40,531 bases of DNA from a virus, in the IMG/VR virus record IMGVR_UViG_3300047160_001675, positions 1 to 40,531 of that record, one strand, 5' to 3'. Below are positions 1 to 40,531 of this stretch, piece after piece; position 1 is the stretch's first letter; each line of letters starts with the position of its first letter. The translations under genes and the position numbers were made by a program. The notes below the pieces were generated by a model. It saw only the letters and a program-made list of their open reading frames with translations. It was not told where the DNA came from and ran no database searches.

Positions 1-97
1 GCATCGAGTACATGATCTTAAGTATTTCCGCTTCTTCTTTATTAGCTTCAAGTAGCCCGTTATCGTCTAGTTGCTGCCCGTATGGCACACGGCCCAC
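1..97. repeat. Terminal direct overlap, copy 1 (identical to 40435..40531). It implies a circular replicon or circular assembly of about 40,434 bp.
   Basis: Base-by-base comparison shows 97/97 identity between the first 97 nt and the last 97 nt of the window. Confidence 0.95.
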
Positions 98-3497: not shown

Positions 3498-3527
3498 ACC
3501 ATAACAGACAACACAAATTCCAGTCAA
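3498..3527 (-). promoter_or_regulatory. Putative sigma70-type leftward early promoter (TTGACT - 18 nt - TATGGT, with an extended -10 TG).
   Basis: The minus strand reads TTGACTggaatttgtgttgtcTGtTATGGT. It sits about 120 nt upstream of the first leftward gene. The ACTGGAATTT motif overlaps the -35 and spacer. Confidence 0.4.
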
Positions 3528-3534
3528 TAGGTTT

Positions 3535-3546
3535 CTGAAATTTCAG
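3535..3546. promoter_or_regulatory. Perfect 12-bp palindrome CTGAAATTTCAG in the divergent early control region (candidate operator).
   Basis: Read directly from the sequence. It belongs to the ACTGRAATT motif family described in the findings. Confidence 0.4.
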
Positions 3547-3686
3547 TTAAAATTGTGCATTCTCTCTAGGGAAACCGTCCGATTTTAAAATAAATAGGCG
3601 AATATGTTAGGATAAAGGTATAATCAAGCTTGACTAATGGCAATCCCGCGCCTAGCGGGCTAGCCTAATAGCTAACTAGTAAACAA

Positions 3687-5350: not shown

Positions 5351-5550
5351 TGTATTTAGTATTGATTCCAGTGCAGAAGCTTAATGGTGCTCGAAGTAAT
5401 TATTATGAAGCTAACTATATGGCAGATCCAGTTGATGTGTGTAGAGCGCTCGGAGGGGGTGCTATAGTTTACAAGTTAGATGCGTTAACAGAGATTATAG
5501 ACATTGAAATTACTTGTAGCGAGAAGGTGATAAATGCAAAGCGAACGTAG
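5350..5550 (+). CDS. Hypothetical protein (66 aa).
   Basis: TAATG-coupled ORF. Confidence 0.5.
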   Translation: MYLVLIPVQKLNGARSNYYEANYMADPVDVCRALGGGAIVYKLDALTEIIDIEITCSEKVINAKRT

Positions 5551-6199
5551 TCTTATTTATCGACCAAACTATCAAGACTATAGATTTAGTTTCATTCCAG
5601 AGTTCGAGGCATACGGCTGAAAGTTTACGCAGGGTACTGCGATATTGAATGATGCGTGGGTGATTAACCTTAGGACGCCGGGCCGTAAGTACAAGATCCG
5701 TAGAGATAGGTATGTGGGTCAGCATAAGTCTGTTCGCTTCCGTAGATATGAACAACTGCCTTGTGTGCCACTAGATAGTTATGCAGATCCCGGCTCTGAT
5801 CCTGTCAACTATGAAGAGCTTAACCTGCTCTATAGTAATGCTAAGAAGTCTTGGGATGCAAGGTCTACATATTTAGGCACTCTGAGGGAGATGCAGAGGG
5901 AGTATAACGTTAGAAAGTCTAAAGAATTATGGGAATCCCCATGCGATGGGGTTTATAAGTTTAATACAATCAAAAGAAGGAAGAAAGAAATGTTTAATGA
6001 AGACGAAGTTAGTTTCATTGAAGAAACTGCAAATAGAGATTTGAAGGCTCTTAATCACAAGATTGAGCAGATGGTTAATGAGATGGCGCGCATGGGTAAG
6101 CAGTTGAGCGACCTGAAGGTTGTGGAGTCTAAGTTGACTTCGATTCTTAGAGCGATCGAAGAAGAAAAAGAAGATGATCGCTGCCGCGGGGCCTGCTAA
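5534..6199 (+). CDS. Hypothetical protein whose ORF is interrupted by an in-frame TGA at 5618..5620 (28 codons, TGA, 192 codons).
   Basis: ATG 5534 has the SD GAGAAGGTGA. MQSERSLIYRPNYQDYRFSFIPEFEAYG ends at TGA and is in the same frame as track ORF 5645..6199. That track ORF begins at a TTG with no SD. Confidence 0.5.
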
Positions 6200-6736: not shown

Positions 6737-6808
6737 GGGTTCATGGTGCAGCGGCTAGCATACCTCCCTGTCACGGAGGAGGCGACAGTTCGATTCTGTC
6801 TGATCCCG
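6737..6808 (+). tRNA. tRNA-Asp: tRNA-Asp (anticodon GUC), CCA not encoded.
   Basis: Hand-folded cloverleaf. Acceptor GGGTTCA/TGATCCC has one T.T mismatch. D stem GTGC/GCAT. Anticodon stem CCTCC/GGAGG with loop CTGTCAC. T arm GACAG-TTCGATT-CTGTC. Confidence 0.8.
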
Positions 6809-6810
6809 AC

Positions 6811-6883
6811 GGACTCGTAGCTCAGTCGGTAGAGCAGCGGATTGTTAATCCGCAGCGCGTAGGTTCAAGTCCTGCCGAGTCCT
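6811..6883 (+). tRNA. tRNA-Asn: tRNA-Asn (anticodon GUU), CCA not encoded.
   Basis: Acceptor GGACTCG/CGAGTCC is perfect. D arm GCTC-AGTCGGTA-GAGC. Anticodon stem GCGGA/TCCGC with loop TTGTTAA. T arm GTAGG-TTCAAGT-CCTGC. Confidence 0.9.
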
Positions 6884-6885
6884 AA

Positions 6886-6959
6886 CGTGCCGTAGCTCAA
6901 TAGGTTAGAGCGGCACTCTTATAAGGTGCAGGTCGGTGGTTCAATTCCACCCGGCACGA
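6886..6959 (+). tRNA. tRNA-Ile: tRNA-Ile (anticodon UAU, AUA decoder), CCA not encoded.
   Basis: Acceptor CGTGCCG/CGGCACG is perfect. D arm GCTC-AATAGGTTA-GAGC. Anticodon stem GCACT/GGTGC with loop CTTATAA. T arm GGTGG-TTCAATT-CCACC. Confidence 0.85.
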
Positions 6960-6996: not shown

Positions 6997-7308
6997 ATGT
7001 TCAATAGGAAGAAAGAGAAAGAGAGATTAGAGAGAGAGAAACTTATGCGTTTAGAGTTAAACGCGTTTCACGGTACTGTGAGGGCTGCCGAGAAACAGAG
7101 CCATGAAGCAGTTCAACTTCTTAAGGAGCTTAAGTATAAGATTAATGAAGATATGAGGGAAGAGCTAGATACTACTCAGAGAAAGTATATAGCTCTGTTG
7201 GAAGCAAAACTCATTCAATTCGATCAAGAAGCTGTTAAGATAAAAGCAGAGAAGGACGCTCAATATCAGCGCCTTCATAATTACTTCTATTCAGGTGCTC
7301 GTCCTTAG
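6997..7308 (+). CDS. Coiled-coil protein (103 aa).
   Basis: GAGGT SD. Charged heptad-rich sequence. Confidence 0.6.
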   Translation: MFNRKKEKERLEREKLMRLELNAFHGTVRAAEKQSHEAVQLLKELKYKINEDMREELDTTQRKYIALLEAKLIQFDQEAVKIKAEKDAQYQRLHNYFYSGARP

Positions 7309-7566
7309 CTTATAGAGGTGTTCAATAGCGTCGCATAGAATCTTGGACTTTTCAGGCTTTCCTGAGCGTTTCATCTCTTCTAAGCATAGCTCGTTGAACA
7401 TCTTCCAATGCTCTTCACTTAGGTACATTGTCACCTTAACCTTTTCCTGTTTAGGTGTGTTTACTTCTTGCGGTTTTGATGTATCTACGTTTTGCGGTAT
7501 TGCCTCGTAGTCCATTAACTTCATCTTCTTTTTGATGCTTTCTTTAGCTTGTTCTATACTCGACAT
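7291..7566 (-). CDS. Small ParA partner, probable ribbon-helix-helix centromere-binding protein (ParG/CopG-like, 91 aa).
   Basis: It sits directly downstream of parA and overlaps it by 13 nt. GGAGGAAG SD. The C-terminal KVKVTMYLSEEHWKMFNELCLEEMKRSGKPEKSKILCDAIEHL has a beta-strand plus two-helix RHH pattern. Confidence 0.45.
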   Translation of the reverse strand: MSSIEQAKESIKKKMKLMDYEAIPQNVDTSKPQEVNTPKQEKVKVTMYLSEEHWKMFNELCLEEMKRSGKPEKSKILCDAIEHLYKLRTST

Positions 7567-8318
7567 TTTACTTCCTCCACTAGTTCACGATAGGCTTCTG
7601 CGCCTTTAGAATCAGGGGCATAATCGAAGATCGACTTGCCGTTCTTTTGTGCTTCATCCAGCTTAATGTTTTGCGGTATTACGGTATTTAGTAACTTAGG
7701 GCCAAAGATTTCATGCAGCGCGGTGTTTACTTCCTTAGCTGCGTTTGCCCTTAGGTCGTGAAATGTTACCAGAACGCCTGTGATCTCTATACGGTGTTTT
7801 TGTACCCAGCCAATCTTTTCGTTAATGTAGTTGACGGTTTCAATGAAGCTATTGACGCCCTCCAAGGCGAAATAGCGTAATTGAACCGGCAGAATGATCT
7901 CTTTAGCTGCGATAAATGAGTTGATCGTCAGGTTGCCGAAGTTAGGTGGGCAGTCAATGATGATGTAGTCATGCTGCTCATTTTCGATCTTATTCTTTAG
8001 GCGAAACTCTTTTGCGCCCATAGAGGATAACTTCATATCTGCAATCGCTAGAGATAAATCAGCTGGAATGATATCAAGATTTGGAATGTAGGTAGGTTGC
8101 CTTACATCACCAACTGATACCGATTCATTACATAGAAGGTCTGAGATTGTGAGCTTGGATTCTGTGCTTATTCCAAGCCCTTTAGAGGTATTTCCTTGAG
8201 GGTCGATATCTACCAGCAATACTTTATTACCGCAATACGCTAAACCGGCAGCAAGGTTAATGGCCGTTGTAGACTTACCTACACCGCCTTTTTGATTTGA
8301 GATCGCTATAATTCGCAT
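7554..8318 (-). CDS. parA: ParA/Soj-family partition ATPase (254 aa).
   Basis: Deviant Walker A NQKGGVGKSTTAINLA. Also VLLVDIDPQGN, IIIDCPP and the VIPQNIKLDEA motif. Confidence 0.9.
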   Translation of the reverse strand: MRIIAISNQKGGVGKSTTAINLAAGLAYCGNKVLLVDIDPQGNTSKGLGISTESKLTISDLLCNESVSVGDVRQPTYIPNLDIIPADLSLAIADMKLSSMGAKEFRLKNKIENEQHDYIIIDCPPNFGNLTINSFIAAKEIILPVQLRYFALEGVNSFIETVNYINEKIGWVQKHRIEITGVLVTFHDLRANAAKEVNTALHEIFGPKLLNTVIPQNIKLDEAQKNGKSIFDYAPDSKGAEAYRELVEEVKCRV

Positions 8319-8896: not shown

Positions 8897-10075
8897 TTAA
8901 TCCTTATATGGGTCTATTTCGTTTTCTGAGGCCATACAAACGCCTATCGGCTTAAGTCGGTGTATTGCCTTGACCGTCTCGCGATGTGCGAATAGAACTT
9001 GTTCTATGCGTTTATAGCAATGCGGGGATTCATCCACACCAGCCCCCCGGAGTTCGACATCGAAACGTTTAACCCAATCTTCCATGTCGTTCTGGGATAC
9101 CAACCCAGCTCTAATAATTTCGCCTGTCTTACGATTACGCTTTCCTTTAGCCTGGGCGCGACCCATAATCCGGCCGGCGCCGTGGATGGTCGAATACATA
9201 GAATCTTTGGATTCGTCGCTATCCACTCCTTCAAGGATGAATGAGTAATCACCCATAGACCCGCCAACAAAGCTTTTTTCGCCGGGAAAATTAGGCGTTG
9301 CGCCCTTTCTAACGACCCATAAGTCTTTCCCAAAATGAGACTCCCTCCATGCAAAATTATGGTGATTGTGTACTTCTTCCAGAATGTCGGCTCGTAGTAT
9401 CTGCGCAACACGCGCACACACCCAATCACGCCCTGCGTAAGCGTACCTACCAGCCATTTCCATACATTTGAGGTACTGTTCTCCGAGGTCGGAAGTTTCG
9501 TCCAAGACAACTGGTTTTGCGTGAATACCATCCTTCCCCCCCGCTTTTTCTATAAAATGTGTGGCTATGGAGTGTCCCAATCCGCGGCTCCCAAAATGTA
9601 CCCCAATCCACACGCGATCAAGATCGTCAACAAAAATATCAACATAATGGTTACCGGAACCAACAGTGCCAAGCTGCTCAATAGCTTTAGACCTAAGATT
9701 CCTAAGCAAATCAAGCTCAGTCCATAAAGGATCATCAAAAAGATTGTGCTCGACTCGTTCATTATTTTTCCTCCCTACTCCGAAGCTGATGTGCTTCTGG
9801 ACTTCGTTCATACTTCGATAGATGTTAGCCCGTACTTGATTAGAATCAGCGTTAACCCGTACAGCCTTATTGCCACATGCAATGTCAAAGCCAACGCCAT
9901 TAACACAGATACGCCCTTCATAAGCGATAACGCCACCAATAGGCACGCTATATCCAATATGGTGATCAGCCATAAGGGCTCCGCAATAAGCTTCATGCTT
10001 CAAGGCCTCCTGCATTTGTAGAATTGTTTCGGCGTCAGGGTCACCCCATACCGGAAGATTATTTAGTCTTTGCAT
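8897..10075 (-). CDS. rtcB: RtcB-family RNA ligase (3'-phosphate/2',3'-cyclic phosphate to 5'-OH ligase).
   Basis: The expected motifs are present: MADHHIGYSVPIGGV, GFDIACGN, GSGNHYVDIF, HFGSRGLGH, HNHHNFAW, GSMGDYSFIL, HGAGR and PHCYKRI. I place the start at ATG 10075 (MQRLNNLPVWG, AAGGAG upstream). The ORF also stays open back to 10126. Confidence 0.9.
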   Translation of the reverse strand: MQRLNNLPVWGDPDAETILQMQEALKHEAYCGALMADHHIGYSVPIGGVIAYEGRICVNGVGFDIACGNKAVRVNADSNQVRANIYRSMNEVQKHISFGVGRKNNERVEHNLFDDPLWTELDLLRNLRSKAIEQLGTVGSGNHYVDIFVDDLDRVWIGVHFGSRGLGHSIATHFIEKAGGKDGIHAKPVVLDETSDLGEQYLKCMEMAGRYAYAGRDWVCARVAQILRADILEEVHNHHNFAWRESHFGKDLWVVRKGATPNFPGEKSFVGGSMGDYSFILEGVDSDESKDSMYSTIHGAGRIMGRAQAKGKRNRKTGEIIRAGLVSQNDMEDWVKRFDVELRGAGVDESPHCYKRIEQVLFAHRETVKAIHRLKPIGVCMASENEIDPYKD

Positions 10076-10268
10076 CTTTCTTCCACTCCTTAGCCAATTC
10101 AGGCTTGCAGATAACGAAAGTTGCATCTAACTCTTTAGCCCATTGCATATCTACTTTCCAATGTTCGTGGCAATACTTCTTAACAAGATTTTGGAACTCC
10201 TTCAAAGGTACGGCTCCCCTGAATACAACATAACCCTCGTCATGTATCTCTAAGCACCATGTAGACAT
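10059..10268 (-). CDS. Small hypothetical protein (69 aa), first gene of the rtcB-parA operon.
   Basis: AGGAGG SD upstream of ATG 10268 (MSTWCLEIHDEG...). It overlaps the rtcB start by 17 nt. Confidence 0.55.
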   Translation of the reverse strand: MSTWCLEIHDEGYVVFRGAVPLKEFQNLVKKYCHEHWKVDMQWAKELDATFVICKPELAKEWKKDAKTK

Positions 10269-12639: not shown

Positions 12640-12685
12640 ACTGAAATTTTAGATAATAAGGGAGAAGAGGATTAACAGGATTTCG

Positions 12686-12704
12686 ACTGAAATTCCAGTT
12701 GATT
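12686..12704 (+). promoter_or_regulatory. ACTGAAATTCCAGTTGATT motif upstream of the portal gene. A second copy, ACTGAAATTTT, is at 12640..12650.
   Basis: It matches 34142..34160 (CTGGATTTCCTGTTGATAG) at 14 of 19 positions. CCAGTTGATT recurs at 4932 and 18777. Confidence 0.35.
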
Positions 12705-12729: not shown

Positions 12730-14769
12730 ATGACTTATACTCCCCAGTCGAACGATAAAGTTTTCAAGTTTAACCAATTCTTCTACGACGCCTATCGTAC
12801 GTGGGGGTTGTACTATGCTGCTGCCTATCGCGACTTGCGAATGTACGCCGGCGATCAATGGACGCAGGTAGAAAAAACTTCGCTTGAGCAGCAAAAGAGG
12901 ATGGTTCTTCAGCTTAACAAAGTTAGGCGAGTAGTTAATCTTTATAGCGGGTATGAGCGTGAAAACCGTCTTAGTACAGTCTGTGCTCCAGTCGAGGATT
13001 CTGATGAGGATACAGCTGATCTCCTCTCTGACGTTATGTTGTATGTCTATGATAAAGGCGATGCACATCATGTCATCTCCGAAGCTTTTGAGCATACGCT
13101 TAAAACAGGTTTGTCGATTGTCGGAATATACATTGACTACAGCAAAGACAAGGTTAACGGGGATATCAAGTTTTACTGGAAGCCCTTTAACGCCCTTATG
13201 CTTGACCCTTATTTTACTAAGCGAGACTTATCAGATTGCGATCAAGCAAGCACTAGGGACTTACTAAGCCGAGAACAAGTTAAATCTATGATGCCGTGGA
13301 TCGATCCTTCGATCATAGATAATATCCCTACAGGTATCCGTGATAATAAATATCAATATCTTGGCATATATCGTCAATACAATTCAACTTACATAGCAAG
13401 AAATCTCCTTACCTATGATCAGCATTGGGTAAGGATTAACAAGCCTCAAAAGTATCTAGTCGATCTAGATACAGGCGTCACGCAGGAATGGAATGGCACG
13501 AAGGAAGAAGAAGAAAAGATTCGCGAAGCAATTGCGCAAAACGAAAACGTCCAAATCATCAACTCATACAAGCGAACTATCGAACTCAACATCATCGTTG
13601 GTGGGCGCCTTCTGTATAGTGGTCCTGACCCTACCGGCCTTGACACTTTTCCTTTTGTCGCACTCATAGCATATTTTGAGCCACTCCTAGACACGATAGA
13701 GCTCAAGATACAGGGCTTAGTCAGATCCATCTATGATGCGCAACGTCAGTACAACCGTCGCCACAGCCAGATCATCGACCTTATGGAATCGGTAATTAAT
13801 ACTGGTTGGATCTCTAAGAACGGCGCTGTAGTTGACCCTACAATGCTTTTACAATCAGGCCAATCAAGGAACGTAGTACTTAATGATGGATTCGACGTCA
13901 ACGCAGATATTAGAGAAATCAACGCACCTCAAGTGCCTCCAGGATACCTCCAGTACCAAGACATCATCGACAAGAACATCATGGAGATCCCGGGTGGATC
14001 AGAAGAACTCCTCGGAATATCATCTACTGGCGACAGTCAAGTTTCTGGAAGGCTCGCGGAAGTACGTGCTAGTAACGGACTTAAAGGTAATCGTGGTCTC
14101 TATGACAACTTGGAACAAACCCTTAAATGGCTCGGTCAAATTGTTTTAAAGGCTATTCAGATCAATTTCACACCGGGGAAGGTCTGGCGTATAACCAAGC
14201 GTGATCCTACGCCAGAATTCTTCAGCGGTGAATTCGGTCAATATGACTCAGTAATCAAACAAGCAATCTTAACTCAGACCCAGAAAGCTGCTTACTACTA
14301 CCAACTCTTGCAGCTTAGGGAAATTGGTATCGCAATACCGGATGACGAGATCGTCGACGCTGCACCTCTTCAAGGTAAGATCCGTCTCCGTCAGAAGATG
14401 GCTGAAATACAACAAGCCCAAGAACAAGCAGCTCAAATTGAGATGGATACAGCTAACCGTCAAGCACAGTTGGAGATGTCTCAAATCGACAACAACTTGG
14501 CTCTGGCGCAAGAGCGTAGAGCTAGGGTCATCGCTGATATTGGCCTCGCTCGAGAGCGTATCAGTGAAGGCGAACAGAATAAGGCTAAAGCCTTACTCGA
14601 TAACGCGAAGACCTTCGCAGAGATCGAGGATCTTGATCGGAATCACTTCTTGGAGGTTATGCGTTTCGCGCATGAGACCCAAGTTCATAACGACGATCAA
14701 ATAACAGAAACCCTCCAGCAAGACAAGAAGTTGGGGGAATCATTAACAGGAGGAAAGCCGAATGGCTAA
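12730..14769 (+). CDS. Portal protein (679 aa).
   Basis: Size and position directly after terL. The acidic and coiled C-terminal region is typical of podovirus portals. No motif-level proof. Confidence 0.7.
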   Translation: MTYTPQSNDKVFKFNQFFYDAYRTWGLYYAAAYRDLRMYAGDQWTQVEKTSLEQQKRMVLQLNKVRRVVNLYSGYERENRLSTVCAPVEDSDEDTADLLSDVMLYVYDKGDAHHVISEAFEHTLKTGLSIVGIYIDYSKDKVNGDIKFYWKPFNALMLDPYFTKRDLSDCDQASTRDLLSREQVKSMMPWIDPSIIDNIPTGIRDNKYQYLGIYRQYNSTYIARNLLTYDQHWVRINKPQKYLVDLDTGVTQEWNGTKEEEEKIREAIAQNENVQIINSYKRTIELNIIVGGRLLYSGPDPTGLDTFPFVALIAYFEPLLDTIELKIQGLVRSIYDAQRQYNRRHSQIIDLMESVINTGWISKNGAVVDPTMLLQSGQSRNVVLNDGFDVNADIREINAPQVPPGYLQYQDIIDKNIMEIPGGSEELLGISSTGDSQVSGRLAEVRASNGLKGNRGLYDNLEQTLKWLGQIVLKAIQINFTPGKVWRITKRDPTPEFFSGEFGQYDSVIKQAILTQTQKAAYYYQLLQLREIGIAIPDDEIVDAAPLQGKIRLRQKMAEIQQAQEQAAQIEMDTANRQAQLEMSQIDNNLALAQERRARVIADIGLARERISEGEQNKAKALLDNAKTFAEIEDLDRNHFLEVMRFAHETQVHNDDQITETLQQDKKLGESLTGGKPNG

Positions 14770-38414: not shown

Positions 38415-38592
38415 GACTCCATACGAGGAGTTAAAAGAATATATTGATGACTACATAAACTTTATGGAGAAGATCAATAAAAAGCGTATGGCAGCAGCCG
38501 AGAAAGAGCTTGAACACACTATCCAAGAGGGTAGAGCGTTCAACCTTTTACGTCAAAATATAACCAATTTGGAGGCTCATGGAGTATCCTAA
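38398..38592 (+). CDS. Hypothetical coiled-coil protein (64 aa; start moved to the internal ATG).
   Basis: GGAGGG SD upstream of ATG 38398. Confidence 0.55.
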   Translation: MSKKPKTPYEELKEYIDDYINFMEKINKKRMAAAEKELEHTIQEGRAFNLLRQNITNLEAHGVS

Positions 38593-39287
38593 AATAAACT
38601 CTCTATGGAAAAGACACGGATGGTACTTCGACGAAAAGGAGAAGAAGGAGTGTCTTTGACGCTTCACGCCAAAAGCTTCGACAGTCTTTCATCGAGGGGG
38701 ACTATGCTTGCCCAGAGTTCGGTTCCATAAATAGATGGATGATCGACGAAAAAGTTGACGGCACTAATGTGCGGATTTTTTGGGAGCCAGCAGACCAGTT
38801 TTCCCCGAACTACGGAGGCAGGACAGATAACGCACAAATGCCAACCTCTCTCCTTCAACACTTGCAACATACTTTTACCCGCGAAAAGCTTCAAAAGCAG
38901 TTTCCTGATGCACGGAAGGTCATTCTTTTCGGCGAAGGGTACGGCCCAAAGATCCAAGCCTGTGGAGGTAGGTATCGTAAAGACGTGTCCTTCATCCTCT
39001 TCGACGTCTGGATCGACGGATGGTGGCTCGAAAAGGAAAGTGTATTGGAGATCGCCTCGGCACTTGATATTGAACACACCATTAATCAAAAGATTATGAC
39101 AACCGCTGAGGTTGTTGAATTCGTAAAATCTAAGCCCAAGAGTTACATCGCGGAAGATAGGGAGCTGATCATGGAGGGGGTAATAGCGCGAAGCGTCCCG
39201 CTTATGCTCTTCAGAAATCACAAAACTCCTATCATGTTCAAACTTAAAGTTAGAGACTTCCCAGATATTAGCGAGGTCGAAGCTTAA
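38579..39287 (+). CDS. ATP-dependent RNA ligase (Rnl2/PF09414-like), assembled as join(38579..38656, 38658..39287). It needs a +1 frameshift at CUU-UGA and would give 235 aa.
   Basis: Motif I is EKVDGTN, with the lysine codon at 38751. Motif III-like is ILFGEGYG, motif IV-like is FILFDVW, and motif V-like is EGVIARS...FKLK. The N-terminal MEYPKINSLWKR resembles T4 Rnl2 MFKKYSSLENHY and lies in the -1 frame relative to the body. The body frame has no start codon or SD upstream of motif I. Confidence 0.65.
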
Positions 39288-39748
39288 TGATCAAGTTAAT
39301 ACTGCCGGGAGATCCTGTAGCTCAAGCGCGAATTAGAGTATTCAAGAGGGGGAATAGGGTTATGACCTTTGACCCACAAACAGCTTTAAAGAGGGATTTG
39401 AAGATCAAAGTCGCGGATGATCTGCAAAAACTCGACTGAAAGCAACCGGAATACCCGCGCGTGATGTTCTGGTTCTACATGCCCATACCCAAAAGCATGT
39501 CGAAAAGGGATCGTGTAGACGCTAATAAAGGGTTCCTGAAGCACGTTAAGAAGCCTGATGTTGATAATCTTATCAAGTTATATCTCGACGTGCTGTCAGG
39601 GATTGTGATTAAAGATGACAATAGTGTGGCTATAGGTAGCGCTATCAAGGTTTATTCTTGTAAGCCCCGGGTGGAGATTTACATAGAGGAGACCCAAAAG
39701 AATGTAACAATGAATGAGGTATGGGAGGGTACATGGTCGACGCAGTAG
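39287..39748 (+). CDS. rusA: RusA-family Holliday-junction resolvase interrupted by an in-frame TGA at 39437..39439 (50 codons, TGA, 102 codons).
   Basis: The N-terminal part MIKLILPGDPVAQARIRV and the C-terminal part FWFYMPIPKSMSKRDR...KKPDVDNLIKLYLDVLSGIVIKDDNSV (PDxDN and DD motifs) are in one frame. The upstream part is TAATG-coupled to the ligase gene. Confidence 0.65.
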
Positions 39749-40323: not shown

Positions 40324-40531
40324 TATATACTCGAGAGGTGGCGCCATGCGTCCATATACCGCCATCTCTATTTCGATAGCCCATATCGTTTAACTGATCC
40401 GCAATAGTCCTAAAGGTCATTCCTTTATGCTTCCGCATCGAGTACATGATCTTAAGTATTTCCGCTTCTTCTTTATTAGCTTCAAGTAGCCCGTTATCGT
40501 CTAGTTGCTGCCCGTATGGCACACGGCCCAC
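40271..40531 (-). CDS. Serine recombinase, 3' part (recombinase/HTH-like DNA-binding region).
   Basis: GRVPYGQQLDDNGLLEANKEEAEILKIMYSMRKHKGMTFRTIADQLNDMGYRNRDGGIWT resembles the PYGY...IA..LN..G...W 'recombinase' domain of serine integrases. The protein stops at 240 aa with no zinc-ribbon or coiled-coil extension. Confidence 0.85.
   Translation of the reverse strand: MGRVPYGQQLDDNGLLEANKEEAEILKIMYSMRKHKGMTFRTIADQLNDMGYRNRDGGIWTHGATSRVYINYEKLFSGVLALQGRL
40435..40531. repeat. Terminal direct overlap, copy 2.
   Basis: Identical to 1..97. Confidence 0.95.

Follow-up and report, generated by a model that had tools for sequence, protein, structure and literature searches.

Does the early gene at positions 5534-6199 (plus strand) of IMGVR_UViG_3300047160_001675, which is interrupted by an in-frame UGA, make one protein or two? 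The DNA in question is a virus record of 40,531 nt that was analysed over its whole length; we call this stretch the window, and all coordinates are window positions. The gene encodes a protein without an assigned function and is referred to here as gene A. In our judgement the best explanation is programmed low-level UGA readthrough: on the comparative evidence set out below, 5534-6199 is probably one gene of 221 codons with a selected UGA at codon 29.

The layout at the split can be read directly and is as a preliminary description of this DNA had given it. A Shine-Dalgarno-like sequence, GAGAAGGTGA (5521-5530, plus strand, as are all the gene A features below), precedes an ATG at 5534-5536, and an equivalent Shine-Dalgarno sequence with ATG or GTG is present in relatives. 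This start opens a short open reading frame (ORF1) of 28 sense codons (5534-5617) that encodes the N-terminal segment of gene A, MQSERSLIYRPNYQDYRFSFIPEFEAYG. Codon 29 is the in-frame UGA (5618-5620), the candidate readthrough site; its context is GGC TGA AAG in the window and GGN UGA AAG UUY in the conserved form. After the stop the same frame runs on as KFTQGTAILNDAWVINLR... to a TAA at 6197-6199. The first 13 codons of this downstream part form a linker, KFTQGTAILNDAW (5621-5659), which can be translated only when the UGA is decoded. A TTG at 5645 is the first start-type codon 3' of the TGA and, as the preliminary description already remarked, lacks an obvious Shine-Dalgarno sequence; further on there is a GTG at 5660. 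The 184-codon open reading frame that begins at the TTG (5645-6199) is in frame with ORF1. By chance alone the two would share a frame in one case out of three, and the non-random signal comes from relatives.

Homologues of the gene A protein were searched for over 5.8 billion proteins, and the DNA of the relatives was then taken from metagenome contigs. This identified sixteen homologues (P0001-P0016; 49-99% identity), all of them annotated as the C-terminal part only. Together with the window, the loci L001, L003, L005, L006, L007/L026, L008, L009, L022, and L028 make up a close clade of ten distinct sequences, with 54-73% protein identity, from independent metagenomes or samples. All ten carry TGA at the same codon, followed in every case by AAG. 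The clade shares the whole arrangement: a Shine-Dalgarno sequence with ATG or GTG, an open reading frame of 23-29 codons, a Gly codon, TGA, AAG, then TTT, CTT, or TTC, and a linker ending in ILND[AS]W. The conserved core of the N-terminal peptide is [LV][IV]Y[RK]P..Y...RFSF[IV]P. Within the clade the internal TGA has never changed to a sense codon or to another stop, and a sense codon at this position was found solely in a distant homologue, which answers the comparison of TGA with sense codons that the preliminary description had proposed. The genuine stops of neighbouring genes drift in the same relatives, between TAA and TAG in the next gene, between TAG and TAA in the upstream gene, and between TGA and TAA in a ParG-like gene. 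From this comparison we conclude that the gene A UGA is maintained by selection and is neither decay nor a sequencing error.

Coding constraint runs through the stop. Synonymous differences in the clade amount to about 0.65 per site (pS), and the ratio of nonsynonymous to synonymous differences per site (pN/pS) in frame 0 is 0.36 for the last twelve codons of the N-terminal peptide, 0.29 for the 13-codon linker, and 0.29 for the next eight codons. In the other two frames the same nucleotides give values of 0.8-2.3 overall (1.2-1.4 for the N-terminal peptide; 0.8 and 2.2 for the linker). The variable columns of the linker are mostly third codon positions, and the reading frame is held in all ten gene A lineages despite indels elsewhere. 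There is no conserved start codon in the linker. The first start-type codon lies 18-39 nt past the stop and varies in type, and the starts chosen by gene callers vary among the relatives as well, being a TTG in some and an ATG farther 5' or a GTG farther 3' in others. Three relatives (L003, L009, and L022) lack any start codon in the interval from the TGA to the GTG after the conserved ILNDSW. Since the linker is constrained in frame 0 and has no conserved start, it appears to be coding sequence that is accessible only to ribosomes passing the UGA. Coupled reinitiation would be expected to leave a conserved downstream start at or near the ORF1 stop, and the gene A clade has none.

A homologue in which the stop is absent came from a profile search over 1.84 billion representative proteins. 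This protein, P0044, lies at the syntenic position in a related 40.3-kb phage contig, and it contains a segment like the N-terminal peptide and the linker without a break (...RYLTFDPEYVRG-M-RFKQGQTILNDSWTINLR...). BLASTP of window residues 3-51 against P0044 gave E = 3e-9 with the TGA aligned to Met; at the DNA level, GGG ATG AGA TTT AAG CAG GGT in P0044 corresponds to GGC TGA AAG TTT ACG CAG GGT in the window. A deletion variant in L020 (138-527) joins the N-terminal peptide straight to the C-terminal part, again with no stop. The two halves therefore occur as one polypeptide in P0044 and L020, and in a second gene, discussed next, a Pfam domain spans the stop. The earlier suggestion that gene A is one gene split by a selected UGA rather than by decay thus holds up in all the sequence-based checks suggested with it, with TGA in 10/10 sequences, purifying selection on both sides of it, and an unbroken counterpart in P0044.

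The second gene encodes RusA (39287-39748, plus strand) and has an in-frame TGA at 39437-39439, codon 51, in the context GAC TGA AAG. The match to the Pfam RusA model covers positions 1-124 of 124 and extends over the TGA, and both halves are needed for it. The TGA is kept in 7/7 distinct clade sequences, being at the same position in L010-L014, L019, and L026. The codon after it is AAG in four of the seven (ACT, AGG, and GTG occur once each), and the nucleotide directly after the stop (+4) is A in six. In RusA genes at 37-43% identity the position holds a sense codon that is variable and is not Cys; the loop around it is variable and contains no redox motif. The preliminary description had seen the same device in both genes, and the RusA comparison agrees with it. 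It had also singled out a hexamer, C-TGA-AAG, shared by the two sites. The UGA-AAG part of this is conserved in the gene A clade and the leading C is not: the preceding Gly codon is GGC in eight sequences, GGT in one, and GGA in one, so the conserved context is UGA-AAG rather than C-UGA-AAG.

Considering the two genes together, +4 is A in 16/17 distinct UGA sites, and the next codon is AAG in 14/17. In E. coli, tRNA-Trp tends to misread a UGA whose next nucleotide is A (Engelberg-Kulka 1981, cited in PMC5289835), and it has been proposed that A residues at +4 and +5 make contact with 16S rRNA (PMC7026636). Structure in the RNA 3' of the gene A stop was sought as well. The window folds into a local hairpin, CGCAG-GGTA-CTGCG (5628-5641, plus strand), which had been put forward as a possible stimulator of readthrough. 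It is missing from the relatives and is probably irrelevant. Individual folds downstream of the stop differ between relatives, RNAalifold on eight sequences gave a consensus of -2.1 kcal/mol with no covariation and thus no conserved structure, no conserved hairpin of the kind expected for a selenocysteine insertion sequence (SECIS) lies 3' of the UGA, and Rfam has no match at the gene A stop. The idea that the UGA sites overlap a recurrent control motif, ACTGAAATT, fared no better. Allowing up to one mismatch, ACTGAAATT occurs 22 times in the window against 15.0 expected (sd 3.7), a count reached in 5 of 100 shuffles and not significant, and the heptamer CTGAAAG occurs at six sites against 7.3 expected. 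With no enrichment and no comparative support, we rejected both as a common regulatory motif.

A third UGA site lies directly upstream of RusA, in a split RNA ligase gene (38579-39287, plus strand). Its ORF1 starts at ATG 38579, has 26 codons (MEYPKINSLWKRHGWYFDEKEKKECL), and ends at TGA 38657, which makes the UGA codon 27. The body of the ligase, with a KxDG motif and the Pfam RNA_ligase domain, lies in the +1 frame. At the junction (38645-38660) the sequence reads AAGGAG (38645-38650), TGT, CTT (38654-38656), TGA (38657-38659), C. The signal of E. coli prfB consists of AAGGAG, a 3-nt spacer, and CUU UGA C. The ligase site has all three features of prfB: its ORF2 is in the +1 frame, it contains CUU UGA C, and an internal Shine-Dalgarno sequence precedes this by 3 nt. 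L010-L013 and L026 carry exactly the same site amid synonymous changes, and the more distant L014 encodes the ligase in a single unbroken open reading frame.

These sites raise the question of whether TGA is a stop at all in this phage. After removal of antisense artefacts, TGA terminates two, at most three, of about 55 window genes and none in the structural module; the genuine TGA stops are at 2744-2746 and 7291-7293 (both minus strand). TAG is unusually frequent as a terminator (19/62 open reading frames, about one third). A distant relative, L019, uses TGA normally, with 8/37 genes ending in it. In-frame TGAs number two in the roughly 13,000 codons of the complete genome, plus the one TGA at the frameshift site. 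No suppressor tRNA(UCA) turned up either in the complete genome or in 14 loci. Because in-frame TGAs are few, genuine TGA stops exist, and tRNA(UCA) is absent, we conclude from the sequences that TGA is a genuine terminator in this phage family, and we reject a reassigned code. The ligase site argues further against reassignment, as a prfB-like site functions only when RF2, release factor 2, decodes UGA slowly.

Several other accounts of gene A have to be weighed against readthrough. The UGA might simply separate two products, ORF1 being a leader or regulatory peptide or a micro-protein, and the downstream protein being started at TTG 5645 or GTG 5660 by reinitiation or coupling, with the shared frame incidental. 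Most of the observations that favour this also weigh against readthrough. Gene callers place the starts of all homologues after the stop, and GTG 5660, which could be an internal start, does not vary among the relatives. Two relatives, L019 (10001-10522, starting MRFRR) and L021 (549-1022, starting MLKPPNKYG), lack the N-terminal peptide and start downstream with a Shine-Dalgarno sequence of their own, and many of the remote homologues are short stand-alone proteins, 62-75 aa in length, whose first residue is the invariant Met153. With the deletion in L020, these two show natural variation of the N-terminus of the gene from lineage to lineage. Given these proteins, the C-terminal helix module can function alone, and readthrough is therefore not strictly required for some product to be made. 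Two further points tell against readthrough: with no stimulatory RNA element its efficiency may be only about 1% or less, and both genuine TGA stops in the window also have A at +4, so that this A is permissive and insufficient to mark a readthrough site. We nevertheless regard separate products as unlikely. They do not account for frame-0 constraint (pN/pS 0.29) on the thirteen codons from TGA to GTG, a stretch that is start-free in several relatives, or for a frame preserved in 10/10 lineages despite indels. P0044 and L020, moreover, encode the N-terminal peptide and the downstream part as a single open reading frame, and this account is ruled out for RusA, where the device is the same UGA-AAG.

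An efficiently decoded UGA, whether through a host using code 4 or 25 or through a dedicated UGA suppressor tRNA in the host, would suit the rarity of TGA and the abundance of TAG among the window's terminators, and suppressor tRNAs do occur in 0.3% of standard-code bacteria (PMC13092985). We think this quite improbable given that just two TGAs lie in frame in about 13,000 codons, that they never alternate with TGG or GGN despite a pS of about 0.65, that TGA terminates genes elsewhere in the family (the ParG-like gene with TGA or TAA, and 8/37 genes in L019), that the conserved CUU UGA C of the ligase needs slow decoding, and that neither the complete genome nor any locus has a tRNA(UCA). Selenocysteine is largely refuted and retains only a very slight probability: the UGA is in frame and the window genome has a small hairpin 7 nt downstream, but that hairpin is not conserved (the consensus fold, covariation, and Rfam results are given above), the uninterrupted P0044 has Met and not Cys, and the RusA site sits in a variable loop that lacks a redox motif. 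The chance that gene A is a decaying gene with a nonsense mutation, an assembly or sequencing error, or a hop of the T4 gene 60 type is equally slight. In-frame stops are commonest in mobilome genes and mostly short-lived (PMC7918605), and a GGC take-off codon followed by a stop looks superficially like gene 60. Conservation refutes all three, however, with the same TGA in at least ten independent assemblies, purifying selection on both flanks, no conserved GGN landing codon, and selection on the very linker that would be skipped.

Under programmed readthrough, ribosomes would begin at ATG 5534, and at the UGA most of them would be stopped by RF2 and release a 28-residue peptide. A minority would decode the UGA with a near-cognate host tRNA, most probably Trp-tRNA(CCA) as favoured by the A after the UGA, and would make a 221-residue protein. 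Since the stop comes so early in the gene, the UGA is better understood as an attenuator, keeping the long protein to a small fraction of initiations, than as an extension device. If the outcome is set by competition with RF2, the UGA could also sense RF2 activity. We infer from the sequences that readthrough occurs, and likewise its efficiency, the inserted residue, its dependence on RF2, and its purpose. For RusA, a Holliday-junction resolvase, a very low level would be plausible biology.

The clade has two candidate readthrough sites and one prfB-type site, all within the first 51 codons of their genes, which suggests a common dependence on RF2. One hypothesis, which we hold tentatively and consider possible rather than likely, is that gene A (codon 29), RusA (codon 51), and the ligase (codon 27) constitute a "UGA regulon" whose output is jointly set by host RF2. 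In-frame readthrough at UGA-AAG would rescue two of the genes and a +1 shift of the prfB type the third, and the phage could sense or exploit RF2 limitation or the translational state of its host. The near-absence of TGA as an ordinary terminator agrees with this idea. On this hypothesis the conserved nascent peptide RFSF[IV]P of gene A might in addition hinder RF2, as TnaC does.

The remainder of gene A (5660-6199, plus strand), covered by homologues P0001-P0016, consists of a basic disordered arm, helices, and a long C-terminal helix with CRGAC before the TAA. An AlphaFold2 model of the 184-aa part has a mean predicted local distance difference test (pLDDT) score of 66, with helices at residues 56-97 and 119-182. 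The protein, which has a C-terminal CxxxC, has no match in Pfam, PHROGs, NCBIfam, or PDB sequences, nor by Foldseek (BFVD) on the AlphaFold2 model. There is a possible internal start at 5976-5992 (plus strand), where GAAGGAAG (5976-5983) precedes an invariant ATG at 5990, the codon of Met153; judging by this arrangement and by the remote homologues that begin at this Met, it may yield a short C-terminal isoform of about 69 aa.

A six-frame scan of the window for in-frame stops joining two long open segments identified two TGA cases on real coding strands, those of gene A (5618-5620) and RusA (39437-39439). A third in-frame TGA, at 806-808 between open reading frames 518-808 and 815-1189, was rejected as an artefact, because these plus-strand frames are antisense to real genes. 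Three plus-strand open reading frames (12-485, 518-808, and 815-1189) are antisense shadows of minus-strand genes, including that of a serine recombinase.

The first 97 nt of the window (1-97) are identical to 40435-40531, a terminal overlap which indicates that the assembly is circular and complete, with a length of about 40.4 kb. The minus-strand gene for the serine recombinase extends across the junction of these ends. The genome is that of a tailed phage and encodes TerL, a P22-like portal, ParA, RtcB, a primase-helicase, RusA, an RNA ligase, and the serine recombinase. Megablast together with tblastn of the gene A region found no close relatives among 50,697 deposited phage records, and 185,579 reference genomes contained no relatives of gene A. 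TerL is about 44% identical to that of phages of various Proteobacteria. The only match to the portal (12730-14769, plus strand) is a 2.3-kb contig binned with an Aquabacterium metagenome-assembled genome (80% identity), and the best plasmid matches to ParA (7554-8318, minus strand) come from environmental Chlamydiae (51% identity). The portal, ParA, TerL, and reference-genome comparisons did not identify the host and give weak hints only.

A tRNA cluster at 6737-6959 contains Asp(GUC), Asn(GUU), and Ile(UAU), with no other tRNA in the window; a Pro(UGG) tRNA is additionally present in relatives (the cluster was compared in L001, L006, L007, and L009). The phage-supplied reader of AUA hints at a host with a higher G+C content than the phage's 43%. 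RtcB (8897-10126, minus strand) is found alongside the second RNA ligase at 38579-39287, and L019 has a Fic-domain gene as well. RtcB and the RNA ligase, with Fic in L019, suggest a counter-defence module for tRNA or RNA repair. Near-palindromic copies of ACTGAAAT/ATTTCAGT are located at 3516-3547 (with TCTGAAATTTCAGT at 3534-3547) and at 12640-12699 (with ACTGAAATTCCAGT at 12686-12699), the former in a divergent intergenic region among the early genes and the latter ahead of the portal gene. These copies have no relation to the UGA context and could act as operators.

Programmed stop-codon readthrough is textbook material for RNA viruses and for phage Qbeta. To our knowledge it is hardly documented for double-stranded DNA (dsDNA) phages or for bacterial genes generally, where annotation usually treats an in-frame stop as the mark of a pseudogene or a split gene. 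We found no description of the present arrangement in the literature, though there is general work on in-frame stops in prokaryotes (PMC7918605). In that work (Belinky et al. 2021) such stops, flanked by sequence with dN/dS below 1 and enriched in phages and transposons, were proposed to lower expression. Whereas those stops are mostly short-lived polymorphisms, the stop in gene A persists at about 0.65 synonymous differences per site and has a fixed +1 codon. The comparative evidence for gene A is unusually clean. If the readthrough interpretation is correct, the phage would offer a compact natural system for studying RF2-dependent recoding and a reason against splitting such genes in phage annotation, and it would point to a possible way for phages to limit toxic enzymes, RusA among them, to very low levels.

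Stop-codon-recoded phages, with TAG or TGA reassigned, have reportedly been described by Ivanova in 2014 and by Borges in 2022. They resemble the window phage in having in-frame stops within intact, conserved phage genes. In recoded phages, however, in-frame stops are numerous, with an enrichment in late genes, and suppressor tRNAs are usually encoded; the window phage has two sites, in early or DNA-metabolism genes, with no suppressor tRNA, and TGA terminates genes elsewhere in its genome. Another related case is the leaky UGA at the end of the Qbeta coat gene, which yields the minor protein A1 at about 5% (PMC7026636). In both cases a UGA in a phage mRNA would be decoded at low frequency by a host tRNA, with no suppressor and no SECIS, and one start would give two products (PMC7026636). 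Unlike the window phage, which has a dsDNA genome of about 40 kb, Qbeta is a single-stranded RNA phage, and its readthrough extends an abundant, complete protein at the C-terminus. In the window phage the stop comes at codon 29 (51 in RusA), the terminated product is a short peptide, the functional body lies downstream, and at least two genes are involved.

A further close parallel is the autoregulatory recoding site of prfB, the gene for RF2, whose general features are described in PMC5009743. There too a short ORF1 ends in UGA (26 codons in E. coli prfB; 26, 28, and 50 in the phage), and the protein depends on escaping RF2. In gene A and RusA, unlike prfB, ORF2 is in the same frame as ORF1, and escape would take place by readthrough and not by a shift to +1; gene A has GGN as the codon preceding its stop. 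Since none of the phage products is a release factor, no feedback loop is evident. An early UGA in the same frame had been anticipated for RF2 genes and was never found in them (Atkins et al. 2016; PMC5009743). Judged from its sequence and that of its relatives, gene A would be a variant of known recoding, the same-frame counterpart of the prfB arrangement, and a rare form of control in DNA phages.

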